64,000 nucleotides of DNA. It comes from Isurus oxyrinchus (taxonomy: Eukaryota). The DNA is taken from the NCBI GenBank assembly GCA_026770705.1, contig JANJGN010000013.1, positions 100,936,001 through 101,000,000 on the forward strand, given 5' to 3'. Below the pieces are notes generated by a model, which searched no databases, was not told the origin of the DNA, and saw only the letters and a list, made by a program, of their open reading frames with translations. Below, piece after piece: positions 89-63,720 of this stretch (positions within the stretch are counted from its first letter, which is position 1; each line of letters begins with the position of its first letter). The position numbers and the translations under genes were made by a program.

Positions 89-109
89 CACTGACACTGG
101 TTTCTGATG
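89..109 (+). CDS. Candidate 21-nt microexon D0 (phase 1-1; [A]LTLVSD[G])
   Basis: ttctttcatcctcag|CA CTG ACA CTG GTT TCT GAT G|gtaaaa; diverged homologue of the 12-nt D microexons downstream. Confidence 0.5.
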
Positions 110-3100
110 GTAAAATTGTCAAATGATGGTCAATGCTTTTGTCATCTTTGGTACAATTTCTGTGCCCTATGTTAAAAAATATGAGCACAAGTATCTTGGT
201 ATTTTACTTGCCTCACTGCTTATTAATGCATATTTATTTTGAGATTGAAAGACCTTCTCATTGAATAGTTATTGGAAAAGTGATATAATAGATATCTGGC
301 ATTATCAAGTATAACTTTCAATGGAGGACGTGTTGTTCAATAAGCTTGTTGAATTTAATGGATAATGTTCAATGTTGCACGACTGAGAGCATTAATGGGA
401 ACACTTTTGAATTAAAAATAGATACTAATAATGAAGACTGCCCTATTGAACAGTGGATTTGACAGTCTCCATTTGTGTTTTTGATGCAAGTACTAAAATG
501 GAAAATTGGGGATTATTTGCTTTTTGCTTTCATGTTTTGAAGCGCTAGGAGCTTGCTGTCATTAATTTTGAAAACCCCAATACACTTATTTGCATGCATG
601 ATGATAGCAGAGGACATCAGGTCACCTGATGAGTAGAGAAGTGCTTGTCTGTCCTGAATAGAAGAGAACGTGCTTGAAAGCATCTCATTTGAAGAATTGC
701 AAAATGAGACGATTCTTTTCGGGTGATTTTGGACAATGATGATCCTTCCATGTGAAATATCTATTTGGAAAGACAGACAAATTTATTTCCTCAAAATGAA
801 TAAAGCAAAGTGCTCATTATCGAGAAATTGATGAAGTAGTAGTGAGAAGTGCCAGGGGTTCAGTGAGATTTTTGAATAACACTCTTTAGTCTTGGGAATT
901 TAAATCGTTTAGAAACTTTGAAGATAAAGTTTTTGCTGATAAACAGACCCTCAATCTTCTCAAGAAAAGTTAATGAAATGTTTGCTTCCACCATGTTATT
1001 TAAGATGTTCTTTTCTGAAAAGATATCCCTTTTGCAGGTAGGAATTGTAGTCGAGGAATGGCTCTAAAGGGTAACCACTACAGTTTGGGAAGGGAATTAC
1101 TGATAGGAAAATTTAGGGACAACTATAGTTCTGTTGCTTGCCTTTGAAGAAGAATTTCTAACTTGGCCCTTCAGCTGATCGAAACGATATGAATATTTAA
1201 ACATAAAATGTTGAAGCCAGTGGTGAATTAATATGCAGCACCATTTTCTCTGGTATTTAGGACCAACACCATTTGGAGGAACAGGAAGACCAACAACTCC
1301 AGAGACCACCATCAGTGGTGAGTGTTGTTCTTCTCATCAGCATGTTAAGTTAATTTTCTGTGATTCGTGTATTAATATTATGTAATATTTCATCTGCTAC
1401 ATAGCGCCAACACCAACTACTGTGACAGGTGTAATTGCCGCTTCAGAGACTGGCATTACGGGTGAGTAGAGCTCATTCTTGTCATGAAAAGATAATGAAG
1501 TGTTTGTTGACACAATGTCATTAATGATATTCTTGCCTGAAAAGAAATGCCTTTTGCAGGCAACTTGCTCCAGCAGCTGCTATGGAGGTTAACTGCTAGA
1601 TTTTGAGAATTGAATTAGTGATAAGAGATTTTGGGTATAATTTTTTTTCTGTCTCTTACGTTTCGAGTATCATCTCTAACTTGCTCCTTCAACTGATGTA
1701 AATTTAGTGTACATTTTCTAGGAAAGCGATGCAACCAGTAGTGAATTAATATGCTTTATCATTTTCTCTGGTATTTAGGGCCAACACCATTTGGAGGAAC
1801 AGAAAGACCAATCATTTCAGAGAACACCATCAATGGTGAGTATTGTTCTTCTCCTCATCTGCATGTTAAATTAAGTGATTGCAACGCGTGCATTATTATC
1901 CTGTAACATTTCCTCTGCTATATGAAATGTAATCTTTGCATGTAAACATCCGCTCATCCTTGTCATGAAAAGATAATGAAGCATTAATTGACACCATGTC
2001 ATAATGATATTCTTGCCTGAAAAGCAAATGCCTTTTGCAGCCAACTTGCTCCAGCAACTGCTCTGGAGGTTAATCGCTAGATTTTGAGAATTGAATTAGT
2101 GATAAGAGATTTTGGGTATAATTATTTTTCTGTTTCTTACCTTTGTAGTATCATCTCTAGCTTGCTCCTTCAACTGATGTAAATTTAGTATACATTTTCT
2201 AGGAAAGTGATGCAACGAGTAGTGAATTAATATATTGTAAGATTTTCTCTGGTATTTAGGGCCAACACCATTTGGTGGAAGAGGAAGACCAAGAATTTCA
2301 GAGACCACCATCAGTGGTGAGTATTGTTCTTCTCCTCATGAGTGTGTTAAGTTTAATTTCTGCGATTTGTGTATTAGTATGCTGAAATATTTCCTCTGCT
2401 ACATGAAATATAATCTTTCCTTGTAAACAAATGCTCATTCTTGTCAACAAAAGATAATGAAGTGTTTGTTGACACCATGTCAATCATGATATTCTTGCTT
2501 GAAAAGCAAATGCCTTTTGCAGGCAACTTGCTCCAGCAACTGCTCTGGAGTTTAACCGCTAGATTTTGAGAATTGAATTAGTGATAAGAGATTTTGGGTA
2601 TAATTATTTTTCTGTTTCCTACCATTCTAATATCATCTGTAATGTGCTCCTTCAACTGAAGTAAATTCAGTGTACAATATGTAGGAAAGCGATGCAGCCA
2701 GCAGGGAATTAACATGCTGTACCATTTTCTCTGGTATTTAGGGCCAAAACCATTTGGAGGAACAGGAAGACCAACAACTTCAGAGACCACCATCAGTGGT
2801 GGTGAGAATTGTTCTTCTCCTCATCAGCATGTTAAGTTAATTTTGTGCGATTCGTATATTAATATTCTGTAATATTTCCTCTGCTTCATAGTGCCAACAC
2901 TAACGACAGTGACAGGTGCATTTTCCACTTCAGAGACCAGCATTTCTGGTGAGTAGAGATTATTTCATTTCATTAGGTGAAATTATTTCAGAGGGATTTG
3001 TGATTTAGCGCTCTGCAATATCATCTCTGCCTCATAGGCCCAACTGTAGCTACAGGGACAGGCATTGCCATAGTTTCAGAAACCAGGATTGGTGGTGAGC

Positions 3101-6100
3101 ACATGTTTTCTCATTGCCATGTGAAGTTTGCCCTGCCAACCATAGGCAGTCAGGGATTTTGATGTTTTTGCAAAATTGAAGTTGATGATATGTTGAGTCC
3201 AATCACATGGAAATGTCTAAATGAGTGCCAAATGAGTTGTTCCACAGTATTATTGGTAATATTCTTACTTCATAAATGTGCTTCTTTATGCTTTGTTCTG
3301 TCAGTGGTTTCTGATGGTAAAATTGTCAAATGATAATAAATTGTTAACGCTTTGTGTAACCTTAGGATAATTTCTGTGCCACATTTTACAAAATGTGAGC
3401 ACAAACACCTTGTCCCTTAACTTACCTCACTGCTTATTGATGCATATTAGTTTTGTGATTGTAAGAGGTGTTGATTGAAGAGCTATGAGAATTGAGATTG
3501 TTAGCAGTTATAGTAGATATCTGGCATTGTCAAGTATTTCTTTTGGTGAGGATGGAGCAGTTAAGTAAGCTTGTTGAATTGATTGGAGTCAGTCCACTGT
3601 GTCATTGTTGGATGAGTGGTTGTGTTATTGGCAGTATCTTTGAATCAGTAAGCGATACGGATAATGAAGACGGCCGAAAACTTTTTGAGAAGTGGAGGAA
3701 CTGGGGCCTGACAATTCCAATTGTTTTTTCGAAGCAAGGATTGAAATTGAAAATTTGCGATTATTTGCTTTTTTGCATTTGTACTTTGAAGAACTATCAG
3801 GTTGCTGTTATTAATTTTAGAAACCTAAATGCACTTATTTGAACGAATGATGATAGCAGAAGACATCAGGTTATCTGATGAGTAGAGAAATGCATGTCTG
3901 TCCTGAGGCCAAGAGGATGTGCTTAAAAGCATCTCAATTGATGAACTGGAAAATGAAAGGATTCTTTTGTGGTGATTTTGGGCAATGATAAGGCTTCCAT
4001 GTGAAATATGTTTTTGAAAAGACAGAGAACATTATTTTCTCAAAATGGAATACAGCAAGGTTTCCATTAGCAAATAATTGGTAAAGTCGTGATGAGAAGT
4101 GCCATGTGCTGAGTGGGATTTTTAAATTACGCCCTTGAAGTTGTTAGAAATATCAATCAGTTTGAAATCTTTCAAATTAAATCTTGACTGTTAAGAAGTG
4201 CTCAATGTCATGAAGAAAAGCAAATGAAGCATTTGCTGACACCATGTCATTGAAGATATCATTGCCTGAAAATGAAGTGCCTTTTATCGACAATTTGGTC
4301 CAGGAATTGCTCTGGAAGTTAATCTCTATCTGATGGGAAGGGAATTGCTGCTGGGCTGTTGTATATAATTATTGTTCTATTCCTTATCATTGTAGAATTA
4401 ATTGTAAGTTGCTCCTTCAGCTGAACTAGATGATGCAAATATCTCAACATTATCTCAGAAGCCGATGCAGCCAGTAGTGAATTAATAATCTGCCATTTCC
4501 TGTGGCATATAGGGCCAAAGCCATTTGGAGGAACAGGAAGACCAAGAACTTCAGAGACCACCATCAGTGGTGAGTATTGTTCTTCTCCTCATCAGCATGT
4601 TAAGTTAAATTCCTCTGATTCGTATATAGGTATTTTGTAATATTTCCTCTGCTACGTTAAATATAATCTTCCCTAGTAAACAACCGCTCATTCTTGTCAA
4701 CAAAAGATAATGAAGCGTTTGTTGTCCCCATGTCATTAATGATATTCTAGCCGGAAAAGCAAATGCATTTTGCAGGCAACATGCTCCAGCACCTGCTCTG
4801 GAGGTTAACCACTAGATTTTGAGAATTGAATTGGTGATAGGAGATTTTGTGTATAATTATTTTTCTGTTTCTTACCTTTGTAATATCATCTCTAGCTTGC
4901 TCCTACAACTGATGTAAATTCAGTGTACATTTTCTAGGAGAGCGATGCAGCCAGTAGTGATTTAATATATTGTCCCATTTTCTCCGGTATTTAGGGCCAA
5001 CACCATTTGGTCGAAGAGGAAGACCAAGAACTTCAGAGACCACCATCAGTGGTGAGTATTGTTCTTCTCCTCATCAGAATATTAAGTAAAATTTCTGCGA
5101 TTCAGGTATAAGTATTCTGCAATATTTCCTCTGCTACATCAAGTATAATCTTTCCTTGTAAACAATCGCTCATTCTTGTCAACAAAAGACAATGAATTGT
5201 TTGTTGACATTTGTTGACACCATGTCATTCATGATATTCTTGCCTGAAAAGCAAATGCCTTTTGCAGGCAATTTGCTCCAGCAACTGCTCTGGGGTTTAA
5301 CTGCTTGATTTTGAGAATTGAATTAGTGATAGGAGATTTTGGGTATAACTATTTTTCTGTTTCTTACCTTTCTAGTATCATCTCTAACATGTTCCTTCAA
5401 CTGAAGTAAATTCAGTGTACATTATGTAGGAAAGCGATGCAGCCAGCAGTGAATTAATATGCTTTACCATTTTCTCTGGTATTTAGGGCCAACACCATTT
5501 GGAGGAACAGGGAGACCAACAACTTCAGAGACCACCATCAGTGGTGAGTATGGTTCTTTTCCTCATCAGCATGTTAAGTTAAATTTCTGCGATTTGTGTA
5601 TTAGTATGCTGAAATATTTCCTCTGCTACCTTAAATATGATCTTTCCTTGTAAACAATCGCTCATTCTTGTCGACAAAAGATAATGAAGCGTTTGCTGAC
5701 ACCATGTCATTGAAGATATCATTGCCTGTAAATTAAGTGCCTCTTATCGGCAACTTTGTCCAGGAATTGCTCTGGAAGTTAACCTCTACCTTATGGGAAG
5801 GGAATTGCTGCTAGGCTGTTGTATATAATTATTGTTCTGTTCCTATCTTTGTAGAAGTAATTGTAAGTTGCTCCTTCAACTGAACTAGATGATGCGAATA
5901 TCTCAACATTATCTCAGAAGCTGATGCAGCCAGTAGTGAATTAATAATCTGCCATTTCCTCTGGCATTTAGGGCCAACACCATTTGGAGGAACAGGAAGA
6001 CCAAGAACTTCAGAGACCACCATCAGTGGTGAGTATTGTTCTTCTCCTCATCAGCATGTTAAGTTAAATTTCTGTGATTTGGGTAGAAGTAGTCTGCAAT

Positions 6101-9100
6101 ATTTCCTCTGCTACGTTAAATATATTCTTTCCTTGTAAACAACTGCTCATTCTTGTCAACAAAAGATTATGAAGCGTTTATTGACACTGCGTCATTAATG
6201 ATATTCTTGGCGGAAAAGCAAATGCCTTTTGCAGGCAACTTGCTCCAGCACCTGCTCTGGATGTTAACCGCTAGATTTTGAGAATTGAATTGGTGATAGG
6301 AGATTTTGGAAATAATTATTTTTCTGTTTCTTACTTTTGTAGTATCATCTCTAGCTTGCTCCTTCAACTGATGTAAATTTAGTTTACATTTTCTAGGAAA
6401 GCAATGCAGCCAGTAGTGAATTAATATATTGTATCATTTTCACTGGTATTTAGGGCCAACACCATTTGGTGGAACTGGAAGACCAAGAACTTCAGAGACC
6501 ACCATCAGTGGTGAGTATTGTTCTTCTCCTTATCAGCGTGTTAAGTAAAATTTCTGCGATTTTTGTATTAGTATGCTGAAATATTTCCTCTGCTACATTA
6601 AGTATAATGTTTCCTTGTAAACAATCGCTCATTCTTGTCGACAAAAGACAATGAATTGCTTGTTGACATTTGTTGACACCATATTCTTGCCTGAAAAGCA
6701 AATGCCTTTTGCAGGCAATTTGCTCCAGCAACTGCTCTGTAGATTAACTGCTGGATTTTAAAAATTGAATTAGTGATAAGCGATTTTGGGTATAACTATT
6801 TTTCTGTTTCTTACCTTTCTAGTATCATCTCTAACATGTTCCTTCAACTGAAGTAAATTCAGTGTGCATTATGTAGGAAAGTGATGCAGCCAGCAGTGAA
6901 TTAATATGCTTTACGATTTTCTCTGGTATTTAGGGCCAACACCATTTGGAGGAACAGGGAGACCAACAACTTCAGAGACTACCATCAGTGGTGGTGAGAA
7001 TTGTTCTTCTCCTCATCAGCATGTTAAGTTAATGCTGTGAAATTCGTGTATTAATATTCTGTACTATTTCCTCTGCTACATAGTGCGAACACCAACGACA
7101 GTGACAGGTGTACTTCCTGCTTCAGAGACCAGCATTTCTGGTGAGTAGAGCTAATTTCATTTGATTAGGTGAAATTATTTCAGAGCGATTTGTGATTTAC
7201 GCTCTGCAATATGATCTCTGCTGCATAGGACCAACCCAAGCTACAGGGACAGGATTTGCAATGGTTTCAGAAACCAGGATTACTGGTGAGCACATGTTTT
7301 CTCATTGCCATGTGAAGTTTGCCCTGCCAACTGCAGGCAGTCAAGGGACTTGATGTTTTTGCAAAATTGAAGTTGATGATATGTTGAGTCCAATCACATG
7401 GAAATATCTAAATGAGTGCCAAATGAGTTGTTCCACAGTATTATTGGTAGTGTTCTTACTTCATAGATGTGATTCTTTATGCTTTGTTCTGGCAGTGGTT
7501 TCTGATGGTAAAATTGTCAAATGATAATAAATTGTTAATGCTTTGTGTAAGCTTAGGTTAACTATTAGATTTTGAGAATTGAATTGCTGATAGGAGATTT
7601 TGGGTATAATTATTGTTCTGTTTCTTACCTTTCTAGTATCATCTCTAACATGTTCCTTCAACTGAAGTAAATTCAGTGTACATTATGTAGGAAAGCGATG
7701 CAGCCAGCAGTGAATTAATATGCTTTACCATTTTCTCTGGTATTTAGGGCCCACACCATTTGGAGGAACAGGGAGACCAAAAACTTCAGAGACCACAATC
7801 AGTGGTGGTGAGAATTGTTCTTCTCCTCATCAGCATGTTAAGTTAATGTTGTGCGATTCGTCTATTAATATTCTGTGATATTTTCTCTGCTACATAGTGC
7901 CAACATTAACTACAGTGACAGGTGTACTTCCTTCTTCAGAGACTAGCATTTCTGGTGAGTAGAGCTAATTTCATTTGATTAGGTGAAATTATTTCAGAGC
8001 GATTTGTGTTTTAGCTTTCTGCCATATGATCTCTGATACATAGGACCAACTCCAGCTACAGGCACAGGCATTGCCATGGTTTCAGAAACCAAGATTACTG
8101 GTGAGGGCATGTTTTCTCATTGCCATGTGAAGTTTGCACTGCTAACTGTGGGTAGTCAAGGGTCTTGATGATTTTTGCAAAATTGAAGTTGATGACGTGT
8201 TGAGTCTAATCACATGGAAATGTATAAATGAGTGCCACATGAGTTGTTCCATAGAATTATTGGTAATGTTCTTACTTCATAAATGTGCTTCTTTATGCTT
8301 TGTTCTGGCAGTGGTTTCTGATGGTAAAATTGTCAAATGATAATAAATTGTTAACGCTTTGTGTAAGCTTAGGTTCAATTTTTATGCCACATTTTACAAA
8401 ATATGAGCAGAAATACCTTGTGCCTTGACTTACCTCACTGCTTATTGATGCATATTTGTTTTGTGATTAAAAGATGTGTTGATTAAAGAGGTATGAGAAT
8501 TGTGATTGTTGCCAGTTATAGTTGATATCTGGCATTGTCAAGTATTTCTTTTGGTCGAGGATGGAGCAGTTAAGTAAGCTTGTTGAATTGATTGGAGTCA
8601 GTCCGATGTGTCATTGTTGGATGAGTGATTGTGTTATTGGCAGTATCTTTGAATTCGCAAGTGATGCGGATAATGAAGATGGCCCAAAACTTTTTGAGAA
8701 ATGGAGGAACTGGGACCTGACAATTCCATTTGTTTTGTCGAAGCAAATATGGAAATTGAAAATTTGCGACTATTTGCTTTTTTACATTTGCAGATTGAAG
8801 AACTATCAGGTTGCTGTTATTAATTTTAGAAACCTGAATGTACTTATTTGAACGAATGATGATAGCAGAAGACATCAGGTTATCTGATGAGTCGAGAAAT
8901 GCTTGTCTGTCCTGAGGCCAAGAGGATGTGCTTAAAAGCATTTCATTTGATGAACTGGAAAATGAAAGGATTCTTTTGGGGTGATTTTGGGCAATGATGA
9001 GGCTTCCATGTGAAATATGTTTTTGGAAAGACAGAGAACATTATTTTCTCAAAATGGAATACAGCAATGTTTCCATTTGCAAATAATTGGTGAAGTAGTG

Positions 9101-12100
9101 ATGAAAAGTGCCATGTGCTGACTGGGACTTTTAAATTGCGCCCTTGAAGTTTTTAGATAAATCAATTAGTTTGAAATCTTTCAAATTAAGTTTCGCCTGT
9201 TAAGAAGCGCTCAATCTTGTGAAGAAAAGCAAATGAAGCATTTGCTGACACCATGTCATTGAAGAAATCATTGCCTGTAAATTAACTGCCTTTTATCGGC
9301 AACTTTGTCCAGGAATTGCTCTGGACGTTAACTGCTACCTTATGGGAAGGTCATTCCTGCTAGGTATATAATTATTGTTCTATTCCTTATCTTTGTAGAA
9401 GTAATTGTAAGTTGCTCCTTCAACTGAACTAGATGATGCGAATATCACAACATTATCTCAGAAGCCGATGCAGCCAGTAGTGAATTAATAATCTGCCATT
9501 TCCTCTGGCATTTAGGGCCAACGCCATTTGGCGGAGCAGGAAGACCAAGAACTTCAGAGACCACCTTCAGTGGTGAGTATGGCTCTTCTCCTCATCAGCA
9601 TGTTAAGTTAAATTTCTGTGATTCGAGTATAAGTATTCTGTAATATTTCCTCTGCTAAGTCAAATATAATCTTTCGTCGTAAACAACTGCTCATTCTTGT
9701 CAACAAAAGATTATGAAGCGTTTGTTGACACCCTGTCATTAATGATATTCTTGGCAGAAAAGCAAATGTCTTTTGCAGGCAACTTGCTCCAGCACCTGCT
9801 CTGGAGGTTAACTGCTAGTTTTTGAGAATTGAATTGGTGATAGGAGATTTTGGGAATAATTATTTTTCTGTTTCTGACCTTTGTAGTATCATCTGTAGCT
9901 TGCTCCTTCAACTGATGTAAATTCAGTGTACATTTTCCAGGAAATCAATGCAGCCAGCAATGATTTAATATATTGTACCATTTTCACTGGTATTTAGGTC
10001 CAACACCATTTGGTGGAACTGGAAGGCCAAGATCTTCAGAGACCACCATCAGTGGTGAGTATTGTTCTTCTCCTCATCAGCATGTTAAGTAAAATTTCTG
10101 TGATTCGGGTATAATTATTCTACAATATTTCCTCTGCTACATTAAGTATAATCTTTCCTTGTAAACAATTGTTCATTCTTGTCAACAGAAGACAATTAAT
10201 TGTTTGTTGACACCATGTCATTCATGATATTCTTGCCTGAAAAGCAAATGCCTTTTGCAGGCAATTTTCTCCAGCAACTGCTCTGGGGTTTAACTGCTAG
10301 ATTTTGAGAATTGAATTAGTGATAGGAGATTTTGGGTATAACTATTTTTCTGTTTCTTACCTTTCTAGTATCATTTCTAACATGTTCCTTCAACTGAAGT
10401 AAATACAGTGTACATGATGTGGGAAAGCGATGCAGCCAGCAGTGAATTAATATACTTTATCATTTTCTCTGGTATTTAGGGCCAACACCATTTGGAGGAA
10501 CAGGGAGACCAACAACTTCAGAGACCACAGTCAGTGGTGGTGAGAATTGTTCTTCTCCTCATCAGCATGTTAAGTTAATGTTGTGCGATTCGTCTGTTAA
10601 TATTCTGTAATATTTCCCCTGCTATATAGTGCGAACACTAACGACAGTGACAGGTGTACTTCCTTCTTCAGAGACCAGCATTTCTGTTAAGTTGAGCTAA
10701 TTTCATTTGATTAGGTGAAATTATTTCAGAGCGATTTGTGACTTAGCGCTCTGCCATATGATCTCTGCTGCATAGGACCAACCCAAGCTACAGGGACAGG
10801 ATTTGCAATGGTTTCATAAATTAGGATTACTGGTGAGCACATGTTTTCTCATTGCCATGTGAAGTTTGCCCTGCCAACTGCAGGCAGTCAAGGGTCTTGA
10901 TGTTTTTGCAAAATTGAAGTTGATGTTATGTTGAGCCCAATCACATGGAAATGTCGAAATAAGTGCCAAATGGGTTTTCCACAGTATTATTGGTAATGTT
11001 CTTACTTCATAAATGTGCTTCTTTATGCTTTGTTCTGGCAGTGGTTTCTGATGGTAAAATTGTTAAATGATAATAAATTGTTAACGGTTTGTGTAAGCTT
11101 AGGTTCAACTTTTAAGCCACATTTTACAAAATGTGAGGACAAACACCTTGTTCCTTTACTTTCCTCACTGCTTATTGATGCATATTTGTTTTGTGATTCA
11201 AAGACGTGTTGGTTAAAGAGGTATGAGAATTGTGATTGTTGCCAGTTATAGTTGATATCTGGCATTATCAAGTATTTCTTTTGGTCGAGGACGGAACAGT
11301 TAAGTAAGGTTGTTGAATTGATTGGAGTCAGTCCGCTGTGTCATTGTTGGATGAGTGATTGTGTTATTGGCAGTATCTTTGAATTAGCAAGCGATACGGA
11401 TAATGAAGATGGCCCAAAACTCTTTGAGAAATGGAGGAACTGGGGCCTGACAATTCCATTTATTTTTTCAAAGCAAATATTGACATTGAAAATTTGCGAT
11501 TATTTGCGTTTTTGCATTTGTAGTTTGAAGAACTATCAGGTTGCTGTTATTAATTTTAGAGTCCTAAATGCATTTATTTGAACGAATGATGATAGCAGAA
11601 GACATCAGGTTATCTGATGAGTAGAGAAATGCTTGTCTGTCCTGAGGCCAAGAGGATGTGCTTAAAAGCATCTCAATTGATGAACTGGAAAATGAAAGGA
11701 TTCTTTTGGGGTGATTTTGGGCAATGATGAGGCTTCCATGTGAAATATGTTTTTGAAAAGGCAGAGAACATTATTTTCTCAAAATGGAATACAGCAATGT
11801 TTCCATTTGCAAATAATTGGTGAAGTAGTGATGAGAAGTGCCATGTGCTGAGTGGGATTTTTAAATTGCGCCCTTGAAGTTGTTAGAAAAAACAATCAGT
11901 TTGAAATCTTTCAAATTAAGTTTTGCCTGTTAAGAAGTGCTCAATCTTGTGAATAGATGCAAATGAAGCATTTGCTGATACCATGTCACTGAAGATATTA
12001 TTGCCTGAAAATTAAGTGCCTTTTATTGGCAAATTTGTCCAGGAATTGCTCTGGAAGTTAACCTCTACCTTATTGGAAGGGAATTGCTGCTAGGCTATGT

Positions 12101-54100: not shown

Positions 54101-57100
54101 TCCTGCTTCAGAAACCAGCATTTCTGGTGAGCAGAGCTAATTTCATTTAATTAGGTGAAATTATTTCAGAGCGATTTGTGATTTAGCGCTCTGCAATATG
54201 ATCTCTGCTGCATAGGACCAACCCAAGCTGCAGGGACAGGATTTGCAATGGTTTCATAAATTAGGATTACTGGTGAGCACATGTTTTCTCATTGCCATGT
54301 GAAGTTTGCCCTGCCAACTGCAGGCAGTCAAGGGTCTTGATGTTTTTGCAAAATTGAAGTTGATGTTATGTTGAGTCCAATCACATGGAAATGTCGAAAT
54401 AAGTGCCAAATGGGTTTTCCACAGTATTATTGGTAATGTTCTTACTTCATAAATGTGCTTCTTTATGCTTTGTTCTGGCAGTGGTTTCTGATGGTAAAAT
54501 TGTCAAATGATAATAAATTGTTAACGGTTTGTGTAAGCTTAGGTTCAACTTTTATGCCACATTTTACAAAATGTGAGGACAAACACCTTGTTCCTTTACT
54601 TTCCTCACTGCTTATTGATGCATATTTGTTTTGTGATTCAAAGACGTGTTGGTTAAAGAGGTATGAGGATTGTGTTTGTTGCCAGTTATAGTTGATATCT
54701 GGCATTATCAAGTATTTCTTTTGGTCGAGGACGGAACAGTTAAGTAAGTTTCCAACCTGATTGTCGCCCAACCTCGGACGGCCCGCTTCTATCTCCTACC
54801 CAAAATCCACAAACAGAACTGCCCCGGTAGACCGATCATCTCAGCTTGCTCCTGCCCCACAGAACTCATTTCTCGTTATCTTGACTCCCTTCTCTCTCCC
54901 CTTGTCCAGTCCCTTCCCACCTACATCCGTGATTCCTCTGACACCTTTCGTCACATCAACAATTTCCAGTTCCCTGGCCCCAACCGCTTCCTCTTCACCA
55001 TGGACGTCCAATCCCTCTACACCTCCATCCCCCACCAGGATGGTCTGAGGGCCCTTAGCTTCTTCCTCGAACAGAGGCCCGAACAATCCCCATCCACCAC
55101 TACTCTCCTCCGTCTGGCTGAACTTGTTCTCACGTTGAACAATTTCTCCTTCAACTCCTCTCACTTCCTCCAAATAAAACGTGTGGCTATGGGTACCCAC
55201 ATGGGCCCCAGCTATGCCTGTCTCTTTATGGCGTATGTGGAACATTCCTTGTTGCAGTCCTACTCCGGCCCCCTTCCACAACTTTTTCTCCGGTACATCG
55301 ATGATTACTTTGGTGCCGCTTCATGCTCTCGTCGGGACTTGGAAAAATTTATTAATTTTGCTTCCAATCTCCACCCCTCTATCATTTTCACGTGGTCCAT
55401 CTCTGACACTTCCCTTCCCTTCTTTGACCTCTCTGTCTCAATCTCTGGTGATAGACTGTCCACCAATATCCATTACAAACCCACCGACTCCCACAGCTAC
55501 CTAGACTACAGCTCCTCACACCCCGCTTCCTGTAACGACTCCATCCCATTCTCCCAGTTCCTTCGCCTTCGTCGCATCTGTTCCGATGATGCTACCTTCA
55601 GAAACGGTTCCTCTGACATGTCCTCCTTCTTCGTTAACCGAGGTTTTCCACCCACGGTCGTTGACAGGGCCCTCCACTGTGTCTAGCCCATCTCCCGCGC
55701 ATCCGCCCTCACGCCTTCTCCTGCCTCCCTGAAACATGATAGGGTCCCCCTTGTCCTCACTTATCACCCCACCAGCCTCCGCATTCAAAGGATCATCCTC
55801 CGCCATTTCCGCCAACTCCAGCATGATGCCACCACCAAACACATCTTCCCTTCACCCCCCTTATCGGCATTCCGTAGGGATCGCTCCCTCTGGGACACCC
55901 TGGTCCACTCCTCCATCACCCCCTACTCCTCAACCCCCTCCTATGGCACCACCCCATGCCCATGCAAAAGATGTAACACCTGCCCCTTCACTTCCTCTCT
56001 CCTCACCGTCCAAGGGCCCAAACACTCCTTTCAAGTGAAGCAGCATTTCACTTGCTTTTCCCCCAACTTAGTCTACTGCATTCGTTGCTCCCAATGTGGT
56101 CTCCTCTACATTGGAGAGACCAAACGTAAACTGGGCGACCGCGTTGCAGAACACCTGCGGTCTGTCCGCAAGAATGACCCAAACCTCCCTGTCGCTTGCC
56201 ATTTTAACACTCCACCCTGCTCTCTTGCCCACATGTCTGTCCTTGGCTTGCTGCATTGTTCCAATGAAGCCCAACGCAAACTGGAGGAACAACACCTCAT
56301 CTTCCGACTAGGCACCTTACAGCCTTCCGGACTGAATATTGAATTCAACAACTTTAGGTCGTGAGCTCCCCCCCGCCCCCCTCCCCCATCCCCACCCCCT
56401 TTCTGTTCCCCCCCTTTTTTTCCCCAATAAATTATATAGATTTTTCTTTTCCCACCTATTTCCATTATTTTTAAATATTTTAAAATCTTTTATGCTCCCT
56501 CCACCCCCACTAGAGCTGTACCTTGAGTGCCCTACCATCCATTCTTAATTAGCACATTTGTTTAGATAATATCACCAACTTTAACTTTATCACCTATGTG
56601 TTCTTTTGTACCATTGTCGCTGACATCTTTTGATGATCTGCTTCTATCACTGCTTGTTTGTCCCTACAACCACACACCCCCCCCCTCTCTCTCTATCTCT
56701 CCGCCCCCCACACACGCACCTTAAACCAGCTTATATTTCAACTCTTTCTTGGACTCGAAATCAAGTTCTGTCGAAAGGTCATGAGGACTCGAAATGTCAA
56801 CTCTTTTCTTCTCCGACGATGCTGCCAGACCTGCTGAGTTTTTCCAGGTAATTCTGTTTTAGTTAAGTAAGCTTGTTGAATTGATTGGAGTCAGTCCGCT
56901 GTGTCATTGTTGGATGAGTGATTGTGTTATTGGCAGTATCTTTGAATTAGCAAGCGATACAGATAATGAAGATGGCCCAAAACATTTTGAGAAATGGAGG
57001 AACTGGGGCCTGACAATTCCATTTATTTTTTCAAAGCAAATATAGAAATTGAAAATTTGCGATTATTTGCGTTTTTGCATTTGTAGTTTGAAGAACTATC

Positions 57101-60100
57101 AGGTTGCTGTTATTAATTTTAGAGTCCTAAATGCATTTATTTGAATGAATGATGATAGCAGAAGACATCAGGTTATCTGATGAGTAGAGAAATGCTTGTC
57201 TGTCCTGAGGCCAAGAGGATGTGCTTAAAAGCATCTCCTTTGATGAACTGGAAAATGAAAGGATTCTTTTGGGGTGATTTTGGGCAATGATGAGGCTTCC
57301 ATGTGAAATATGTTTTTGAAAAGGCAGAGAACATTATTTTCTCAAAATGGAATACAGCAAGGTTTCCATTAGCAAATAATTGGTGAAGTAGTGATGAGAA
57401 GTGCCATGTGCTGAGTGGGATTTTTAAATTGCGCCCTTGAAGTTGTTAGAAATAACAATCAGTTTGAAATCTTTCAAATTAATTTTGCCTGTTAAGAAGT
57501 GCTCAATCTTGTGAATAGATGCAAATGAAGCATTTGCTGATACCTATTGTCATTGAAGATATTATTGCCTGAAAATTAAGTGCCTTTTATTGGCAAATTT
57601 GTCCAGGAATTGCTCTGGAAGTTATCCTCTACCTTATTGGAAGGGAATTGCTGCTAGGCTATGTTGTATATAATTACTGTTCTATTCCTTTTCTTTGTAG
57701 AATTAAGTGTAAGTTGCTCCTTGAACTGAACCAGATGTTGCGAATATCTCAACATTATCTCAGAAGCCGATGCAGCCAGTAGTGAATTAATAATCTGCCT
57801 TTTCCTCTGGCATTTAGGGCCAACGCCATTTGGAGGAGCAGGAAGACCAAGAACTTCAGAGACCACCTTCAGTGGTGAGTATTGTTCTTCTCCTCATCAG
57901 CATGTTAAGTTAAATTTCTGTGATTCGGATGTAAGTATTCTGTAATATTTCCTCTGCTACGTTAGATATAATCTTTCCTTGTAAACAACTGCTCATTCTT
58001 GTCAACAAAAGATTATGAAGCGTTTGTTGACACTCTGTCATTAATGATATTCTTGCCGGAAAAGCAAATGCCTTTTGCGAGCAACTTGCTCCAGCACGTG
58101 CTCTGGTGGTTAACTGCTAGATTTTGAGAATTGAATTGGTGATAGGAGATTTTGGGAATAATTATTTTTCTGTTTCTTACCTTTGTAGTATCATCTCTAG
58201 CTTACTCCTTCAACTGATGCAAATTTAGTTTACATTTTCTAGGAAAGCGATGCATCCAGTAGTGATTTTATATATTGTACCATTTTCTCCGATATTTAGG
58301 GCCAACACCATTTGGTGGATCTGGAAGACCAAGAACTTCAGAGACCACCATCAGTGGTGAGTATTATTCTTCTCCTTATCAGCGTGTTAAGTTCAATTTC
58401 TGCGATTTTTGTATTAGTATGCTGAAATATTTCCTCTGCTACATTAAGTATAATCTTTCCTTGTAAACAATCGCTCATTCTTGTCGACAAAAGACAATGA
58501 ATTGTTTGTTGACATTTGTTGACACCATATGCTTGCCTGAAAAGCAAATGCCTTTTGCAGGCAATTTGCTCCAGCAACTGCTCTGTAGATTAACTGCTGG
58601 ATTTTGAGAATTGAATTAGTGATAAGTGATTTTGGGTATAACTATTTTTCTGTTTCTTACCTTTCTAGTATCATCTCTAACATGTTCCTTCAACTGAAGT
58701 AAATTCAGTGTACATTATGTAGGAAAGCGATGCAGCCAGCAGTGAATTAATATGCTTTACCATTTTCTCTGGTATTTAGGGCCAACACCATTTGGAGGAA
58801 CAGGGAAACCAACAACCTCAGAGACTACCATCAGTGGTGGTGAGAATTGTTCTTCTCCTCATCAGCATGTTAAGTTAATGCTGTGAGATTCGTGTATTAA
58901 TATTCTGTAATATTTCCTCTGCTACATAGTGCGAACACTAACGACAGTGACAGGTGTACTTCCTGCTTCAGAGACCAGCATTTCTGGTGAGTAGAGCTAA
59001 TTTCATTTGATTAGGTTAAATTATTTCAGAACGATTTGTGATTTAGCGCTCTGCAATATGATTTCTGCTGCATGGGACCAACCCAAGCTACAGGGACAGG
59101 ATTTGCAATGGTTTCAGAAACCAGGATTACCGGTGAGCACATGTTTTCTCATTGCCATGTGAAGTTTGCCCTGCCAACTGCAGGCAGTCAAGAGTCTTGA
59201 CGTTTTTGCAAAATTGAAGTTGATGATATGTTGAGTCCAATCACATGGAAATATCTAAATGAGTGCCAAATGAGTTTTCCACAGTATTATTGGTAGTGTT
59301 CTTACTTCATAAATGTGCTTCTTTATGCTTTGTTCTGGCAGTGGTTTCTGATGGTAAAATTGTCAAATGATAATAAATTGTTAATGCTTTGTGTAAGCTT
59401 AAGTTAACTACTAGATTTTGAGAATTGAATTGCTGATAGGAGATTTTGGGTATAATTATTTTTCTGTTTCTTACCTTTCTAGTATCATCTCTAACATGTT
59501 CCTTCAACTGAAGTAAATTCAGTGTGCATTATGTAGGAAAGCGATGCAGCCAGCAGTGAATTAATATGCTTTACCATTTTCTCTGGTATTTAGGGCCAAC
59601 ACCATTTGGAGGAACAGGGAAACCAACAACCTCAGAGACTACCATCAGTGGTGGTGAGAATTGTTCTTCTCCTCATCAGCATCTTAAGTTGATGTTGTGC
59701 GATTCGTCTGTTAATGTTCTGTGATATTTTCTCTGCTACATAGTGCCAACATTTACTACAGTGACAGGTGTACTTCCTTCTTCAGAGACTAGCATTTCTG
59801 GTCTGTAGAACTAATTTCATTTGATTAGGTGAAATTATTTCAGAGCGATTTGTGATTTAGCTTTCTGCCATATGATCTCTGATACATAGGACCAACCCAA
59901 GCTACAGGGGCAGGCATTGCCATGGTTTCAGAAACCAAGATTACTGGTGAGGGCATATTTTCTCATTGCCATGTGAAGTTTGCACTGCTAACTGTGGGTA
60001 GTCAAGGGTCTTGATGTTTTTTGCAAAATTGAAGTTGATGACATGTTGAGTCCAATCACATGGAAATGTATAAATGAGTGCCATCTGAGTTGTTCCATAG

Positions 60101-63100
60101 AATTATTGGTAATGTTCTTACTTCATAAATGTGCTTCTTTATGTTTTGTTCTGGCAGTGGTTTCTGATGGTAAAATTGTCAAATGATAATAAATTGTTAA
60201 CGCTTTGTGTAAGCTTAGGTTCAACTTTTAAGCCACATTTTACAAAATGTGAGCAGAAATATCTTGTGCCTTTACTTACCTCACTGCTTATTGATGCATA
60301 TTTGTTTTTTGATTAAAAGACGTGTTGATTAAAGAGGTATGAGAATTGTGATTGTTGCCAGTTATAGTTGATATCTGGCATGGCCAAGTATTTCTTTCGG
60401 TCGAGGACGGAGCAGTTAAGTAAGCTTGTTGAATTGATTGGAGTCAGTCTGCTGTGTCATTGTCGGATGAGTGATTGTGTTGTTGGCAGTATCTTTGAAT
60501 TCGCAAGTGATACGGATTATGAAGATAGCCCAAAACTTTTTGAGAAATGGAGGAATTGGGGCCTGACAATTCCATTTGTTTTTTTGAAGAAAACATCGAA
60601 AGTGAAAATTTGTGATAATTTGCTTTTTTGCATTTGTACTTTGAAGAAATATCAGGTTGCTGTTATTAATTTTAGAAACCTAAATGCATTTATTTGAACG
60701 AATGATGATGGCAGAAGACATCAGGTTATCTGATGAGTCGAGAAATGCTTGTCTGTCCTGAGGCCAAGAGGATGTGCTTAAAAGCATCTCAATTGATGAA
60801 CTGGAAAATGAAAGGATTCTTTTGGGGTGATTTTGGGCAATGATGAGGCTTCCATGTGAAATATGTTTTTGGAAAGACAGAGAAAATTATTTTCTCAAAA
60901 TGGAATACAGCAAGGTTTCCATTAGCAAATAATTGGTGAAGTAGTGATGAGAAGTGCAATGTGCTGAGTGCGATTTTTAAATTGCGCCCCTGAAGTTGTT
61001 AGAAATATCAATCAGTTTGAAATCTTTCAAATTAATTTTGCCTGTTTAGAAGCGCTCAATCTTGTGAAGAAAAGCAAATGAAGCATTTGCTGACACCATG
61101 TTATTGAAGATATCATTGCCAGAAAATGAAGTGCCTTTTATTGGCAACTTTGTCCAGGAATTGCTCTGGAAGTTATCCTCTACCTTATTGGAAGGGAATT
61201 GCTGCTAGGCTATGTTGTATATAATTATTGTTCTATTCCTTATCTTTGTAGAAGTAATTGTATGTTGCTCCTTCAACTGAACTAGATGATGCGAATATCT
61301 CAACATTATCTCAGAAGCCGATGCAGCCAGTAGTGAATTAATAATCTGCCATTTCCTCTGGCATTTAGGGCCAATGCCATCTGGAGGAACAGGAAGACCA
61401 AGATCTTCAGAGACCACCATCAGTGGTGAGTATGGCTCTTCTCCTCATCAGCATGTTAAATTAAATTTCTGTGATTCGGGTATAAGTATTCTGTAATATT
61501 TCCTCTGCTAAGTTAAATATAATCTTTCCTTGTAAACAACTGCTCATTCTTGTCAACAAAAGATTATGAAGCATTTGTTGACACCCTGTCATTAATGATA
61601 TTCTTACCGGAAAGGCAAATGCGTTTTGCAGGCAACTTGCTGCAGCACCTGCTCTGGAGGTTAACCGCTAGATTTTGAGAATTGAATTGGTGATAGGAGA
61701 TTTTGTGAATAATTATTTTTCTGTTTCTTACCTTTGTAGTATCATCTCTAGCTTGCCCCTTCAACTGATGTAAATTCAGTGTACATTTTCTAGGAAAGGA
61801 ATGCAGCCAGTAGTGATTTAATATATTGTCCCATTTTCTCCGGTATTTAGGGCCAACACCATTTGGTGGAACTGGAAGACCAAGAACTTCAGAGACCACC
61901 ATCAGTGGTGAGTATTATTCTTCTCCTTATCAGCGTGTTAAGTTCAATTTCTGCGATTTTTGTATTAGTATGCTGAAATATTTCCTCTGCTACATTAAGT
62001 ATAATCTTTCCTTGTAAACAATCGCTCATTCTTGTCGACAAAAGACAATGAATTGTTTGTTGACATTTGTTGACACCATATGCTTGCCTGAAAAGCAAAT
62101 GCCTTTTGCAGGCAATTTGCTCCAGCAACTGCTCTGTAGATTAACTGCTGGATTTTGAGAATTGAATTAGTGATAAGTGATTTTGGGTATAACTATTTTT
62201 CTGTTTCTTACCTTTCTAGTATCATCTCTAACGTGTTCCTTCAACTGAAGTAAATTCAGTGTACATTATGTAGGAAAGCGATGCAGCCAGCAGTGAATTA
62301 ATATGCTTTACCATTTTCTCTGGTATTTAGGGCCAACACCATTTGGAGGAACAGGGAAACCAACAACCTCAGAGACTACCATCAGTGGTGGTGAGAATTG
62401 TTCTTCTCCTCATCAGCATGTTAAGTTAATGTTGTGAGATTCGTGTATTAATATTCTGTAATATTTCCTCTGCTACATAGTGCGAACACTAACGACAGTG
62501 ACAGGTGTACTTCCTGCTTCAGAAACCAGCATTTCTGGTGAGTAGAGCTAATTTGATTTGATTAGGTTAAATTATGTCAGAACGATTTGTGATTTAGCGC
62601 TCTGCAATATGATTTCTGCTGCATAGGACCAACCCAAGCTACAGGGACAGGATTTGCAATGGTTTCAGAAACCAGGATTACCGGTGAGCACATGTTTTCT
62701 CATTGCCATGTGAAGTTTGCCCTGCCAGCTGCAGGCAGTCAAGAGTCTTGATGTTTTTGCAAAATTGAAGTTGATGATATGTTGAGTCCAATCACATGGA
62801 AATATCTAAATGAGTGCCAAATGAGTTGTTCCACAGTATTATTGGTAATGTTCTTACTTCATAAATGTGCTTCTTTATGCTTTGTTCTGGCAGTGGTTTC
62901 TGATGGTAAAATTGTCAAATGATAATAAATTGTTAATGCTTTGTGTAAGCTTAGGTTAACTACTAGATTTTGAGAATTGAATTAGTGATAGGAGATTTTG
63001 GGTATAACTATTTTTCTGTTTCTTACCTTTCTAGTATCATCTCTAACATGTTCCTTCAACTGAAGGAAATTCAGACTACATTATATAGGAAAGCGATGCA

Positions 63101-63720
63101 GCCAGCAGTGAATTAATATGCTTACCATTTTCTCTGGTATTTAGGGCCAACACCATTTGGAGGAACAGGGAAACCAACAACCTCAGAGACTACCATCAGT
63201 GGTGGTGAGAATTGTTCTTCTCCTCATCAGCATCTTAAGTTAATGTTGTGCGATTCGTCTGTTAATATTCTGTGATATTTTCTCTGCTACATAGTGCCAA
63301 CATTTACTACAGTGACAGGTGTACTTCCTTCTTCAGAGACTAGCATTTCTGGTGTGTAGAACTAATTTCATCTGATTAGGTGAAACTATTTCAGAGCGAT
63401 TTGTGATTTAGCTATCTGCCATATGATCTCTGTTACATAGGACCAACTCCAGCTACAGGGACAGGCATTGCCATGGTTTCAGAAACCAAGATTACTGGTG
63501 AGGGCATTTTTTCTCATTGCCATGTGAAGTTTGCACTGCTAACTGTGGGTAGTCAAGGGTCTTGATGTTTTTTGCAAAATTGAAGTTGATGACATGTTGA
63601 GTCCAATCACATGGAAATGTATAAATGAGTGCCATATGAGTTGTTCCATAGAATTATTGGTAATGTTCTTACTTCATAAATGTGCTTCTTTATGTTTTGT
63701 TCTGGCAGTGGTTTCTGATG
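89..63720 (+). CDS. Internal part of a multi-exon mucin-like (Thr/Ser/Gly/Pro-rich) gene; array of ~125 exons of 57/60 nt plus ~29 candidate microexons; start and end outside window
   Basis: Repeated blocks are bounded by a pyrimidine tract + (t/c)ag acceptor and a G|gtgag donor. They are 57 or 60 nt long, phase 1 at both ends, and translate to xPTxxxxTGxxxxSETxI[S/T]. Many differences between A copies are synonymous third-position changes. Confidence 0.85.
1261..1317 (+). CDS. Type A exon, 57 nt (GPTPFGGTGRPTTPETTIS)
   Basis: ttttctctggtatttag|GA CCA ACA CCA TTT GGA GGA ACA GGA AGA CCA ACA ACT CCA GAG ACC ACC ATC AGT G|gtgagt. Confidence 0.85.
1405..1461 (+). CDS. Type B exon, 57 nt (APTPTTVTGVIAASETGIT)
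   Basis: tttcatctgctacatag|CG CCA ACA CCA ACT ACT GTG ACA GGT GTA ATT GCC GCT TCA GAG ACT GGC ATT ACG G|gtgagt; 87-nt intron after the A exon. Confidence 0.85.
1779..3316 (+). CDS. Exon cluster 1 (remainder): A A A60 B C D
   Basis: A 1779-1835, A 2260-2316, A60 2742-2801, B 2892-2948, C 3038-3094 (GPTVATGTGIAIVSETRIG), D 3305-3316. All have AG/GT and are open in frame. Confidence 0.8.
4513..8323 (+). CDS. Exon cluster 2: A A A A A A60 B C D A60 B C D
   Basis: A 4513-4569, 4995-5051, 5487-5543, 5972-6028, 6454-6510; A60 6934-6993; B 7084-7140; C 7229-7285; D 7496-7507; A60 7748-7807; B 7898-7954; C 8044-8100; D 8312-8323. Confidence 0.8.
9516..11053 (+). CDS. Y cassette: A A A60 B(donor lost) C*(TAA) D
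   Basis: A 9516-9572, 9998-10054; A60 10480-10539; B 10630-10686 followed by ttaagt instead of gtgagt; C 10776-10832 with TAA at 10817-10819; D 11042-11053. Confidence 0.7.
12254..14606 (+). CDS. X cassette: A A A60 B C D A60 B C D
   Basis: A 12254-12310, 12736-12792; A60 13216-13275; B 13366-13422; C 13512-13568; D 13779-13790; A60 14031-14090; B 14181-14237; C 14327-14383; D 14595-14606. Confidence 0.78.
15807..18160 (+). CDS. X cassette (copy of previous at +3553/3554)
   Basis: A 15807-15863, 16289-16345; A60 16769-16828; B 16919-16975; C 17065-17121; D 17333-17344; A60 17585-17644; B 17735-17791; C 17881-17937; D 18149-18160. Confidence 0.78.
19361..21703 (+). CDS. X cassette
   Basis: A 19361-19417, 19843-19899; A60 20313-20372; B 20463-20519; C 20609-20665; D 20876-20887; A60 21128-21187; B 21278-21334; C 21424-21480; D 21692-21703. 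Confidence 0.78.
22902..24449 (+). CDS. Y cassette: A A A60 B C*(TAA) D
   Basis: A 22902-22958, 23384-23440; A60 23876-23935; B 24026-24082; C* 24172-24228 (TAA 24213-24215); D 24438-24449. Confidence 0.72.
25650..27197 (+). CDS. Y cassette (X/Y hybrid 5' end): A A A60 B C*(TAA) D
   Basis: A 25650-25706, 26132-26188; A60 26624-26683; B 26774-26830; C* 26920-26976 (TAA 26961-26963); D 27186-27197. Confidence 0.72.
28398..30749 (+). CDS. X cassette
   Basis: A 28398-28454, 28880-28936; A60 29360-29419; B 29510-29566; C 29656-29712; D 29923-29934; A60 30174-30233; B 30324-30380; C 30470-30526; D 30738-30749. Confidence 0.78.
31948..33495 (+). CDS. Y cassette: A A A60 B C*(TAA) D
   Basis: A 31948-32004, 32430-32486; A60 32922-32981; B 33072-33128; C* 33218-33274 (TAA 33259-33261); D 33484-33495. 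Confidence 0.72.
34696..37048 (+). CDS. X cassette
   Basis: A 34696-34752, 35178-35234; A60 35658-35717; B 35808-35864; C 35954-36010; D 36221-36232; A60 36473-36532; B 36623-36679; C 36769-36825; D 37037-37048. Confidence 0.78.
38247..39784 (+). CDS. Y cassette: A A A60 B C*(TAA, 9-nt deletion) D
   Basis: A 38247-38303, 38728-38784; A60 39220-39279; B 39370-39426; C* 39516-39563 (48 nt, TAA 39557-39559); D 39773-39784. Confidence 0.72.
40981..43333 (+). CDS. X cassette
   Basis: A 40981-41037, 41463-41519; A60 41943-42002; B 42093-42149; C 42239-42295; D 42506-42517; A60 42758-42817; B 42908-42964; C 43054-43110; D 43322-43333. Confidence 0.78.
44531..46075 (+). CDS. Y cassette: A A A60 B(acceptor lost) C*(TAA) D
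   Basis: A 44531-44587, 45013-45069; A60 45502-45561; B 45652-45708 preceded by cattg rather than catag; C* 45798-45854 (TAA 45839-45841); D 46064-46075. Confidence 0.7.
46333..47946 (+). pseudogene. Penelope-like RT-GIY-YIG ORF, 5'-truncated, one in-frame TAG
   Basis: One reading frame runs from 46333 (SNLIVAQPRTARFYLLPKIHK) through the RT (YIDD), a TAG at 47266-47268, PLVLTYHP, PCPCKRCNTC and the GIY-YIG domain to TGA at 47946. The track ORFs 46582-47268 and 47617-47946 are in this same frame. Confidence 0.9.
48346..48384 (+). ncRNA. Degenerate minimal type I hammerhead ribozyme motif in the PLE 3' terminal region
   Basis: agtt-CTGTCGA-a-aggtc-atgag-gactc-GAAA-tg-TC-aact: stem I agtt/aact, CUGANGA-like core with A6>U, stem II ggtc/gact, GAAA, UC site. 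Minimal hammerheads are an established feature of PLE terminal repeats. Confidence 0.55.
49400..51751 (+). CDS. X cassette (first C acceptor lost)
   Basis: A 49400-49456, 49882-49938; A60 50362-50421; B 50512-50568; C 50658-50714 preceded by catgg; D 50924-50935; A60 51176-51235; B 51326-51382 (donor gtctgt); C 51472-51528; D 51740-51751. Confidence 0.75.
52949..54493 (+). CDS. Y cassette (copy of 44531-46075 at +8418)
   Basis: A 52949-53005, 53431-53487; A60 53920-53979; B 54070-54126 (acceptor lost); C* 54216-54272 (TAA 54257-54259); D 54482-54493. Confidence 0.7.
54751..56364 (+). pseudogene. Penelope-like RT-GIY-YIG ORF, copy 2
   Basis: The track translations match copy 1 except CSSEAQ>CSNEAQ; in-frame TAG at 55684-55686. 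Confidence 0.9.
56764..56802 (+). ncRNA. Degenerate hammerhead motif, copy 2
   Basis: Same sequence as 48346-48384. Confidence 0.55.
57818..60169 (+). CDS. X cassette (copy of 49400-51751 at +8418)
   Basis: A 57818-57874, 58300-58356; A60 58780-58839; B 58930-58986; C 59076-59132 (acceptor lost); D 59342-59353; A60 59594-59653; B 59744-59800; C 59890-59946; D 60158-60169. Confidence 0.75.
61369..63720 (+). CDS. X cassette with Y-type 5' end
   Basis: A 61369-61425, 61851-61907; A60 62331-62390; B 62481-62537; C 62627-62683; D 62894-62905; A60 63145-63204; B 63295-63351; C 63441-63497; D 63709-63720. Confidence 0.78.

Follow-up and report, generated by a model that had tools for sequence, protein, structure and literature searches.

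The 64,000-nucleotide (nt) stretch of the Isurus oxyrinchus genome considered here (contig JANJGN010000013.1, positions 100,936,001 to 101,000,000 of the forward strand; hereafter, the window) is occupied by a tandem array of small, exon-like blocks within a gel-forming mucin gene. Assignment of this gene to the Muc19 family is close to certain. We also consider it probable, judging from the sequence, that the array represents the Pro/Thr/Ser-rich (PTS) domain of the mucin, with one class of blocks (A) spliced in and two others (B and C) carried along as passengers. The blocks are not a chance pattern: they are exon-sized, bounded by AG and GT, and placed, in a compatible phase, between exons that encode the N and C termini of a single mucin gene.

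Within the window, BLAST searches with one seed per class recover 68 A, 29 B, and 28 C blocks, without exception on the plus strand; these counts agree exactly with those of an initial annotation of the window. Block length is 57 nt, or 60 nt in 28 A copies (with an extra codon at the donor side) and 48 nt in one C copy; it is always a multiple of three, and the reading phase is always 1-1. An AG, a GT, and no stop are found in 113 of the 125 blocks (A 68/68, B 26/29, C 19/28). Not mentioned in the initial annotation are seven C copies that carry an in-frame TAA despite intact AG and GT, and five blocks in which a splice dinucleotide is gone (AG in two C and two B, GT in one B). The earlier figure of about 150 mini-exons is reached only when 29 copies of a fourth block, D, are added to these 125. 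D is a 12-nt AG..GT stretch, and 28 of its 29 window copies have the AG and an open frame. Representative blocks are as follows:

1261..63497, plus strand: window portion of the mini-exon array (units AAABC and AAABCABC).
2260..2316, plus strand: class A example, 57 nt, phase 1-1, Thr/Gly/Pro-rich, strong acceptor; a putative working repeat exon.
2742..2801, plus strand: 60-nt class A example.
2892..2948, plus strand: class B example, 57 nt, 90 nt past an A exon, weak acceptor; selection on splice sites not detectable.
3038..3094, plus strand: class C example, 57 nt, 89 nt past a B block, weakest acceptor; selection not detectable.
10776..10832, plus strand: first C block with an in-frame TAA, AG and GT kept.
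24172, 26920, 33218, 39516, 45798, and 54216, plus strand: starts of the other TAA-bearing C blocks of the window, AG and GT kept.
3305..3316, plus strand: D block example, a putative micro-exon of 12 nt (phase 1-1) that scores well at its splice sites.
89..109, plus strand: 21-nt variant of the D block, at which the initial annotation began.

The array extends beyond the window on both sides, as had been supposed. We read 150 kb upstream and 200 kb downstream (414 kb in all, with zero N, from a 147-Mb contig of a 4.98-Gb assembly), and give outside coordinates as a continuation of the window numbering, with negative values upstream. The array spans ~150 kb, from the first A exon at -818 to the last A-like exon at ~148,573 to ~148,629, with the downstream remainder running from 64,919 to ~148,629 (~85 kb). 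Across it, nhmmer (E < 1e-3) identifies 242 blocks (132 A, 57 B, and 53 C), a count that takes in a few out-of-register relics at the array ends, where the copies are older and more diverged or degraded. AG, GT, and the lack of a stop are retained in 204 of the 242. Array-wide, 13 C copies combine a canonical AG and GT with an in-frame stop. These stops have two origins, and the 11 copies with a common TAA diverge by up to 3.4%. The A repertoire is homogeneous, with only 36 peptide types among 132 copies.

Identification of the host gene relies on exons on both sides of the array. A motif scan of the surrounding regions revealed plus-strand cysteine-rich exons, and seven of nine open reading frames (ORFs) tested match a mucin domain in Pfam: VWD on five, TIL on one, and Cys_knot on the last exon (E 3.1e-5, 24.6 bits against a cut-off of 24). 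A signal-peptide-like first exon lies at -105,445 (plus strand). Using three shark homologues as guides, we placed 27 exons from -96,437 to -21,755 (plus strand) that encode D1-D2-D'-D3, join in frame into 1,173 residues without a stop, and show 66-70% identity to the three shark proteins. Their introns are GT-AG in 26 cases and GC-AG in one (the GC donor ends the D2 exon at -67,480 to -67,388), and the last of these exons ends in phase 1, the phase of the array. Three VWD-C8-TIL units thus follow the signal peptide, each VWD start with a Pfam match, as is characteristic of gel-forming mucins. On the other side, five exons from 153,692 to 166,028 (plus strand; phases 1-0, 0-0, 0-1, 1-2, and last) form one open frame encoding a VWC-like segment and then a cystine knot, with polyA-type hexamers within the next 250 nt. 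Signal-peptide, VWD, and cystine-knot exons had been predicted to flank the array, and all were located. The proposal that each block is a symmetric exon within the PTS domain of a mucin is supported.

The central domain is Pro/Thr/Ser-rich and in phase with the flanking exons, the A exons encoding 27% T, 18% G, 16% P, 12% S, and 8% R. The A repeat is Gly/Pro/Arg/Phe-rich for a mucin. A-A junctions would form Ser-Gly four residues past a Glu, speculatively a glycosaminoglycan site. When the last 650 amino acids of 12 homologues (at least one with D4) were searched against the downstream region, only the VWC-like and cystine-knot exons were matched, and no fourth VWD; the few other matches were weak or involved repeat-derived model tails. 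Searches of the array and its flanks for CysD, using tblastn, local alignment, and profiles built on DNA (best E 0.14) and protein (best E 0.64), were likewise negative. A protein search with one A exon and its flanking read-through gave 13 candidates, none at E ≤ 0.01. For window positions 1200-4200, no RNA run was among those listed as sharing its words, and six runs of unstated kind contain 0.21-0.22 of them. In four of eight runs guessed to be RNA (tissue unknown), contigs on two cystine-knot exons cover only short intronic repeat pieces, with no joint. Neither result has any bearing on expression.

Phylogenetic placement used a D'D3 tree of 42 rows (this gene plus 41 homologues, hand-picked to span taxa). 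In it, the gene and the proteins from Mustelus, Rhincodon, and Heterodontus form one group (100/100), which is nested in a chondrichthyan clade (100/99) and, with that, in a Muc19 clade (100/100) apart from the 10 MUC2/MUC5-type rows. Membership in MUC2, MUC5AC, or MUC5B is ruled out, as the gene has no D4 and no CysD and falls outside the MUC2/5 clade. Also ruled out are a noncoding satellite, given the in-phase mucin exons on both sides and the selection on A sites, and a minus-strand gene, given the lack of strong minus-strand matches.

The 33 non-repeat coding exons, on both sides of the array, contain no stop and no frameshift. Cysteine losses are also informative. In TIL', C1 and C7 are both lost, although each is present in 43 of 43 aligned relatives. 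As C1 and C7 of TIL domains pair in a disulfide (PMC4567993), their joint loss is what would be expected if free thiols are selected against. C3 and C5 of the first TIL are likewise lost together, and coelacanth and rat Muc19 also lack them. Two VWD3 cysteines are missing too, and the closest orthologues are without them.

Tests of selection were restricted to the homogeneous core of the array (1,000-120,000; 127 A, 52 B, and 50 C), which excludes the end relics. By parsimony, changes that destroy a splice dinucleotide or create a stop, observed versus expected from the flanks, number 0 versus 12.9 in A, 4 versus 4.4 in B, and 5 versus 2.1 in C. Such counts are inflated by recombination, and alleles were therefore also counted once each, which avoids homoplasy. 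A exons then show none of 20 possible disruptive alleles, compared with 67 of 222 in the flanks (p = 0.001; 86 and 119 of the 127 copies were used for the two flanks, indel-bearing ones being dropped) and 44 of 154 for other alleles of the exons (p = 0.002). There is no depletion in B (2/16) or C (4/17). Depletion of splice-killing and stop alleles is therefore confined to class A, and B and C behave like intron DNA. Given the divergence of up to 3.4% among the C copies that share the TAA, this stop spread during a time when A remained intact. Within A exons, amino-acid alleles (31/109) and silent alleles (13/45) are equally common.

The three classes are also ranked by acceptor strength. With a rough splice matrix trained on the 32 non-repeat acceptors and donors of the gene, acceptors reach a median of 7.1 bits in A, 3.2 in B, and 1.9 in C; 31 of the 32 native acceptors score at least 4.1 bits (leave-one-out). 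Taken together, the stop-free non-repeat exons, the depletion specific to A, and the paired loss of C1 and C7 argue for a gene that is probably alive.

A scenario that would account for these patterns begins with an ancestral unit of a few PTS mini-exons plus a CysD exon, as in three neighboring paralogues and the whale-shark orthologue. In this gene, CysD would have been lost and exon-plus-intron units amplified via unequal crossover; because the exons are frame-neutral, gain or loss of whole units would leave the reading frame intact. The class A exons (131-132 copies) would be spliced into a PTS domain of ~2,540 amino acids, with selection keeping their splice sites and frame and not their amino acids. 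B and C, with weak acceptors, would be mostly skipped and copied along as passengers, which is how stop-bearing C copies could have spread. Gel-forming mucins are secreted and O-glycosylated, and polymerize through D3 and the cystine knot. By analogy with the family, we would expect this gene to encode a secreted mucin of about 3,900-4,000 amino acids that polymerizes through these same parts. Its length may vary mainly between alleles, and perhaps also through incidental skipping of A exons. With intact 3' exons, a full-length protein can be made only if the 13 stop-bearing C copies are nearly always skipped.

Several points weigh against this scenario. The splicing of the blocks is something we infer from the sequence, and simple arithmetic indicates that ~95% skipping at each of the 13 stop-bearing C copies is needed for half of the transcripts to yield the full-length product. 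Donors of B and C are normal (medians of 9.0 bits for A, 8.2 for B, and 6.8 for C, with the same rough matrix). B has no stop allele (0/4), so it could be a real optional exon, and the tests on B and C are low-powered. The ratio of nonsynonymous to synonymous change (dN/dS) in A exons is ~0.74, and T plus S make up 39% of A exons, compared with 53-63% of the PTS exons of the paralogues. Counting against a living gene are this lower T plus S content, the missing CysD, a PTS exon at -13,327 that is without a good donor, and the loss of one E3 cysteine that is conserved in 40 of 41 relatives and has no evident partner. Regarding the gene model, exons between the signal peptide and D1 are unplaced (there is one 30-nt candidate at -103,841). 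Lastly, the D'D3 tree contains no MUC6 row.

Three other explanations need to be considered alongside passenger B and C blocks in a living gene. The array could be a combinatorial library of cassettes, with A, B, D, and intact C alternatively included to give many isoforms differing in length and glycosylation sites, and with stop-bearing C copies acting as poison or terminal exons that tune output. We regard this as unlikely. It would fit the frame neutrality of every block, the 204 of 242 blocks with AG, GT, and no stop, the absence of stop alleles in B, and D, which keeps AG and GT in 50 of 50 core copies with good scores (~7 bits); however, the splice alleles of D (0/12, a low-powered count) weigh little against the flank rate of 19/222. 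Among listed RefSeq isoforms, seven of 13 from a Leucoraja paralogue differ from X1 by one clean PTS deletion of 13-17 amino acids, and 10 of 14 from a Pristis paralogue (in a cluster of 42) differ by clean deletions of 37 or 74 amino acids, but such models are generated automatically, concern paralogues in repetitive DNA, and could reflect mapping artifacts. The same idea was put forward for chicken Muc13 (in the available text of PMC1552070). On the other hand, splice sites of B and C are lost at the intron rate, C gains stops, and near-identical A copies would generate diversity mostly in length. In the form given in the initial annotation, with all ~150 blocks freely combined, the library does not hold up, as only A is depleted of disruptive alleles, B and C are intron-like with weak acceptors, and 13 C copies are stop cassettes. 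As for splice diversity more broadly, skipping among near-identical A exons would mainly alter length, and the skate and sawfish RefSeq paralogue cassettes keep the idea open. A bolder version is quite unlikely: sharks and rays would have a cluster of about six Muc19 genes with evolving libraries of symmetric mini-exons, and in this gene ~130 A exons would be selectively included, the 13 stop decoys skipped, and B and D optional, with each cell setting its own mucin length and glycan spacing, stop cassettes serving as a dosage or length filter via decay, and the Gly/Pro/Arg/Phe-rich A repeat, with its Ser-Gly pair at A-A junctions, possibly forming a specialized gel.

Alternatively, the gene could be recently dead or truncated, with all canonical blocks spliced, the protein ended before the cystine knot by the first TAA-bearing C block (10,776), and the array itself now propagating like satellite DNA. 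The 13 C copies with AG, GT, and a stop would be consistent with this, as would the degraded copies at both array ends, the lack of CysD where two orthologue models carry it, the one cysteine lost unpaired, and the presence of five nearby paralogues that could cover the function. We nevertheless judge it very unlikely: all 33 non-repeat coding exons are intact, including five past the supposed truncation, A exons beyond the first stop show no disruptive alleles either, the age of the TAA lineage is apparent from its 3.4% divergence, and the TIL' cysteine losses are paired. Finally, copy number could be inflated by assembly and the real array much shorter. One pair of 6.2-kb blocks is 99.97% identical (two mismatches), but in the 11 remaining full-length pairs that we compared the difference is 0.2-4.4%, identity of the first 8.4-kb copy to the other two is only 99.5-99.6%, and the 414-kb region is without N. 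This explanation seems extremely improbable and, in any case, would alter the count and not the gene structure.

Returning to the favored reading (A spliced in, B and C as passengers), the architecture of the array hints at how it may have expanded. Blocks are organized in the higher-order units AAABC and AAABCABC, with introns of ~425 nt (A-A), 90 nt (A-B), 89 nt (B-C), and 460 or 1,420 nt (C-A). Larger blocks of 2.7-8.4 kb have a mutual identity of 95.6-99.97%, and a retroelement was copied along with the 8.4-kb block. On these grounds, repeated unequal crossover probably produced the block duplications, in agreement with the mechanism proposed in the initial annotation. The retroelement fragment encodes reverse transcriptase (RT) and GIY-YIG (Penelope-like) and occurs in four copies:

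46333..48444, plus strand: intronic RT + GIY-YIG fragment bearing a short direct repeat at each end and duplicated as part of the 8.4-kb block.
54751..56862, plus strand: second copy, 99.95% identical.
85,590-87,701: third copy, outside the window; 99.95% identity holds for all three array copies.
-10128 to -8029: fourth copy, upstream of the array, 96% identical.

The fragment is 5'-truncated, and the two window copies appear as GC-rich interruptions of the array. The copies could be used as a clock for the 8.4-kb duplications. There are also A-only units of 482 bp (e.g., ~147 nt past window position 4513) that keep a relic of the B acceptor although the B and C blocks are gone, indicating that loss of whole B and C exons preceded amplification.

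The gene does not stand alone. A search of the same genome with a D3 exon gave 12 matches (six strong, four weaker, and two marginal). The six strong matches are on the same contig, at 100.9-102.3 Mb, and correspond to five plus-strand genes and one minus-strand gene. The gene under study is the LRRK2-adjacent member of this cluster, followed by five further paralogues over 1.4 Mb. A late WD40 exon of LRRK2 lies on the same strand, 32 kb before the mucin start codon and 137 kb upstream of the window. Between them, at -114,676 to -114,458, is a coiled-coil-like ORF of 73 amino acids with a weak Pfam match (E 0.08). The four weaker matches, on contig C10 at 89.5-92.6 Mb, probably represent a MUC2/5/6 cluster, and a further VWD-like match occurs on the mucin contig at 97.27 Mb, 3.6 Mb upstream.

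Paralogues were sampled over 40 kb behind each of the five other D3 exons. In the third, fourth, and sixth genes of the cluster, PTS exons of 57/60/63 nt (phase 1-1) form arrays that alternate with stop-free CysD exons; one of these CysD exons is 95% identical to a Carcharodon carcharias model. No mini-exon array was seen in the 40-kb samples from the second and fifth genes, which possibly missed the PTS (one CysD piece was found in the second), and four queries did not detect the N-terminal exons of the next paralogue in 166,100-264,000. The whale-shark orthologue has A-like units before its CysD domains and, at its end, B-, C-, and A-like units (the B and C likeness judged by eye); its model terminates in an A-like exon read into the intron that here follows an A exon. 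Because this orthologue carries A/B/C-like units together with CysD, the mini-exon design is probably old and CysD was probably lost from this gene.

Vertebrate Muc19/spiggin shares with this gene the three N-terminal VWD-C8-TIL units, a PTS domain, the lack of a fourth VWD, the VWC-like segment, the cystine knot, the LRRK2 neighbor, and the clade. Human MUC19 directly adjoins LRRK2, CNTN1 is the downstream neighbor of Muc19, and in both mouse and human the gene likewise includes numerous small repeat exons. What differs here is that the PTS is split into ~240 blocks of 57/60 nt over 150 kb, with two classes decaying, and that the gene is one of six clustered paralogues in a cluster that carries CysD. 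The relevant literature, as represented by the accessible portions of the papers cited, places human MUC19 and LRRK2 within one 742-kb region and the 30-bp variable number tandem repeat of MUC19 in one ~12-kb exon (PMC10557577). It also describes mammalian Muc19 as lacking a fourth VWD, CysD as typical of MUC2/MUC5, three Muc19 paralogues in Callorhinchus milii, and expression of frog Muc19 in skin (PMC4948705). Spiggin is a Muc19 orthologue and the middle of the bovine gene is unresolved (PMC2180178, PMC3056801), and muc19 marks mucosal cells of dogfish skin (PMC13558645).

The closest database entries are RefSeq models named "mucin-19-like" (Mustelus asterias, Heterodontus francisci) and "mucin-2-like" (Rhincodon typus), which are orthologues by the tree (100/100) and by their 66-70% identity. 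All three stop before or early in the PTS, and the mucin domain is consequently missing from them. The M. asterias and R. typus models (P0002, P0003) contain CysD, and none was found in this gene.

Other mucins resemble the array in part. Chicken Muc13 likewise has one ~20-amino-acid repeat per exon, and control of length by alternative splicing was proposed for it; however, it is a transmembrane mucin of the SEA type that has 12 or more repeats and does not form gels, and decaying or stop-bearing classes are not reported in the available text (PMC1552070). In Xenopus tropicalis, MucXS/Otogl is a gel-forming skin mucin with a multi-exonic central domain and no CysD, but it belongs to the otogelin-like family (PMC5789918). 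FIM-C.1 of X. laevis, also a gel-forming skin mucin and described as polymorphic via alternative splicing, belongs instead to the TFF-module family (PMC7177656). Neither is described, in the accessible parts of these papers, as a satellite-scale array with decaying exon classes. The one-repeat-per-exon design attributed to FIM-B.1 in the initial annotation is not confirmed by the available part of PMC7177656.

Alternatively spliced cassette arrays, such as schistosome micro-exon genes and Dscam-like genes, are characterized by many isoforms in cDNA and by cassettes that are all functional and diversified, whereas here only A is depleted of disruptive alleles and A is homogeneous. The one-repeat-per-exon mucin design and the idea of length control by splicing are already known from chicken Muc13. 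As far as our searches reach, the new details are the scale, the mix of live and decaying classes, the presence of stops in blocks with canonical sites, the clustering of six genes, and the loss of CysD. A literature search that mostly did not extend to subscription journals gave no paper on mini-exon arrays in chondrichthyan Muc19 or on a cluster of six such genes.

The occurrence of CysD in the neighboring paralogues suggests that this domain is not confined to MUC2/MUC5 and that it was lost in this gene. More generally, the locus would illustrate how a frame-neutral exon-intron unit can be amplified in the manner of a satellite, with only a single exon class maintained by selection. It may offer a natural test of exon definition among ~240 near-identical sites, as well as a natural test of the 2006 proposal that mucin length is set by splicing.

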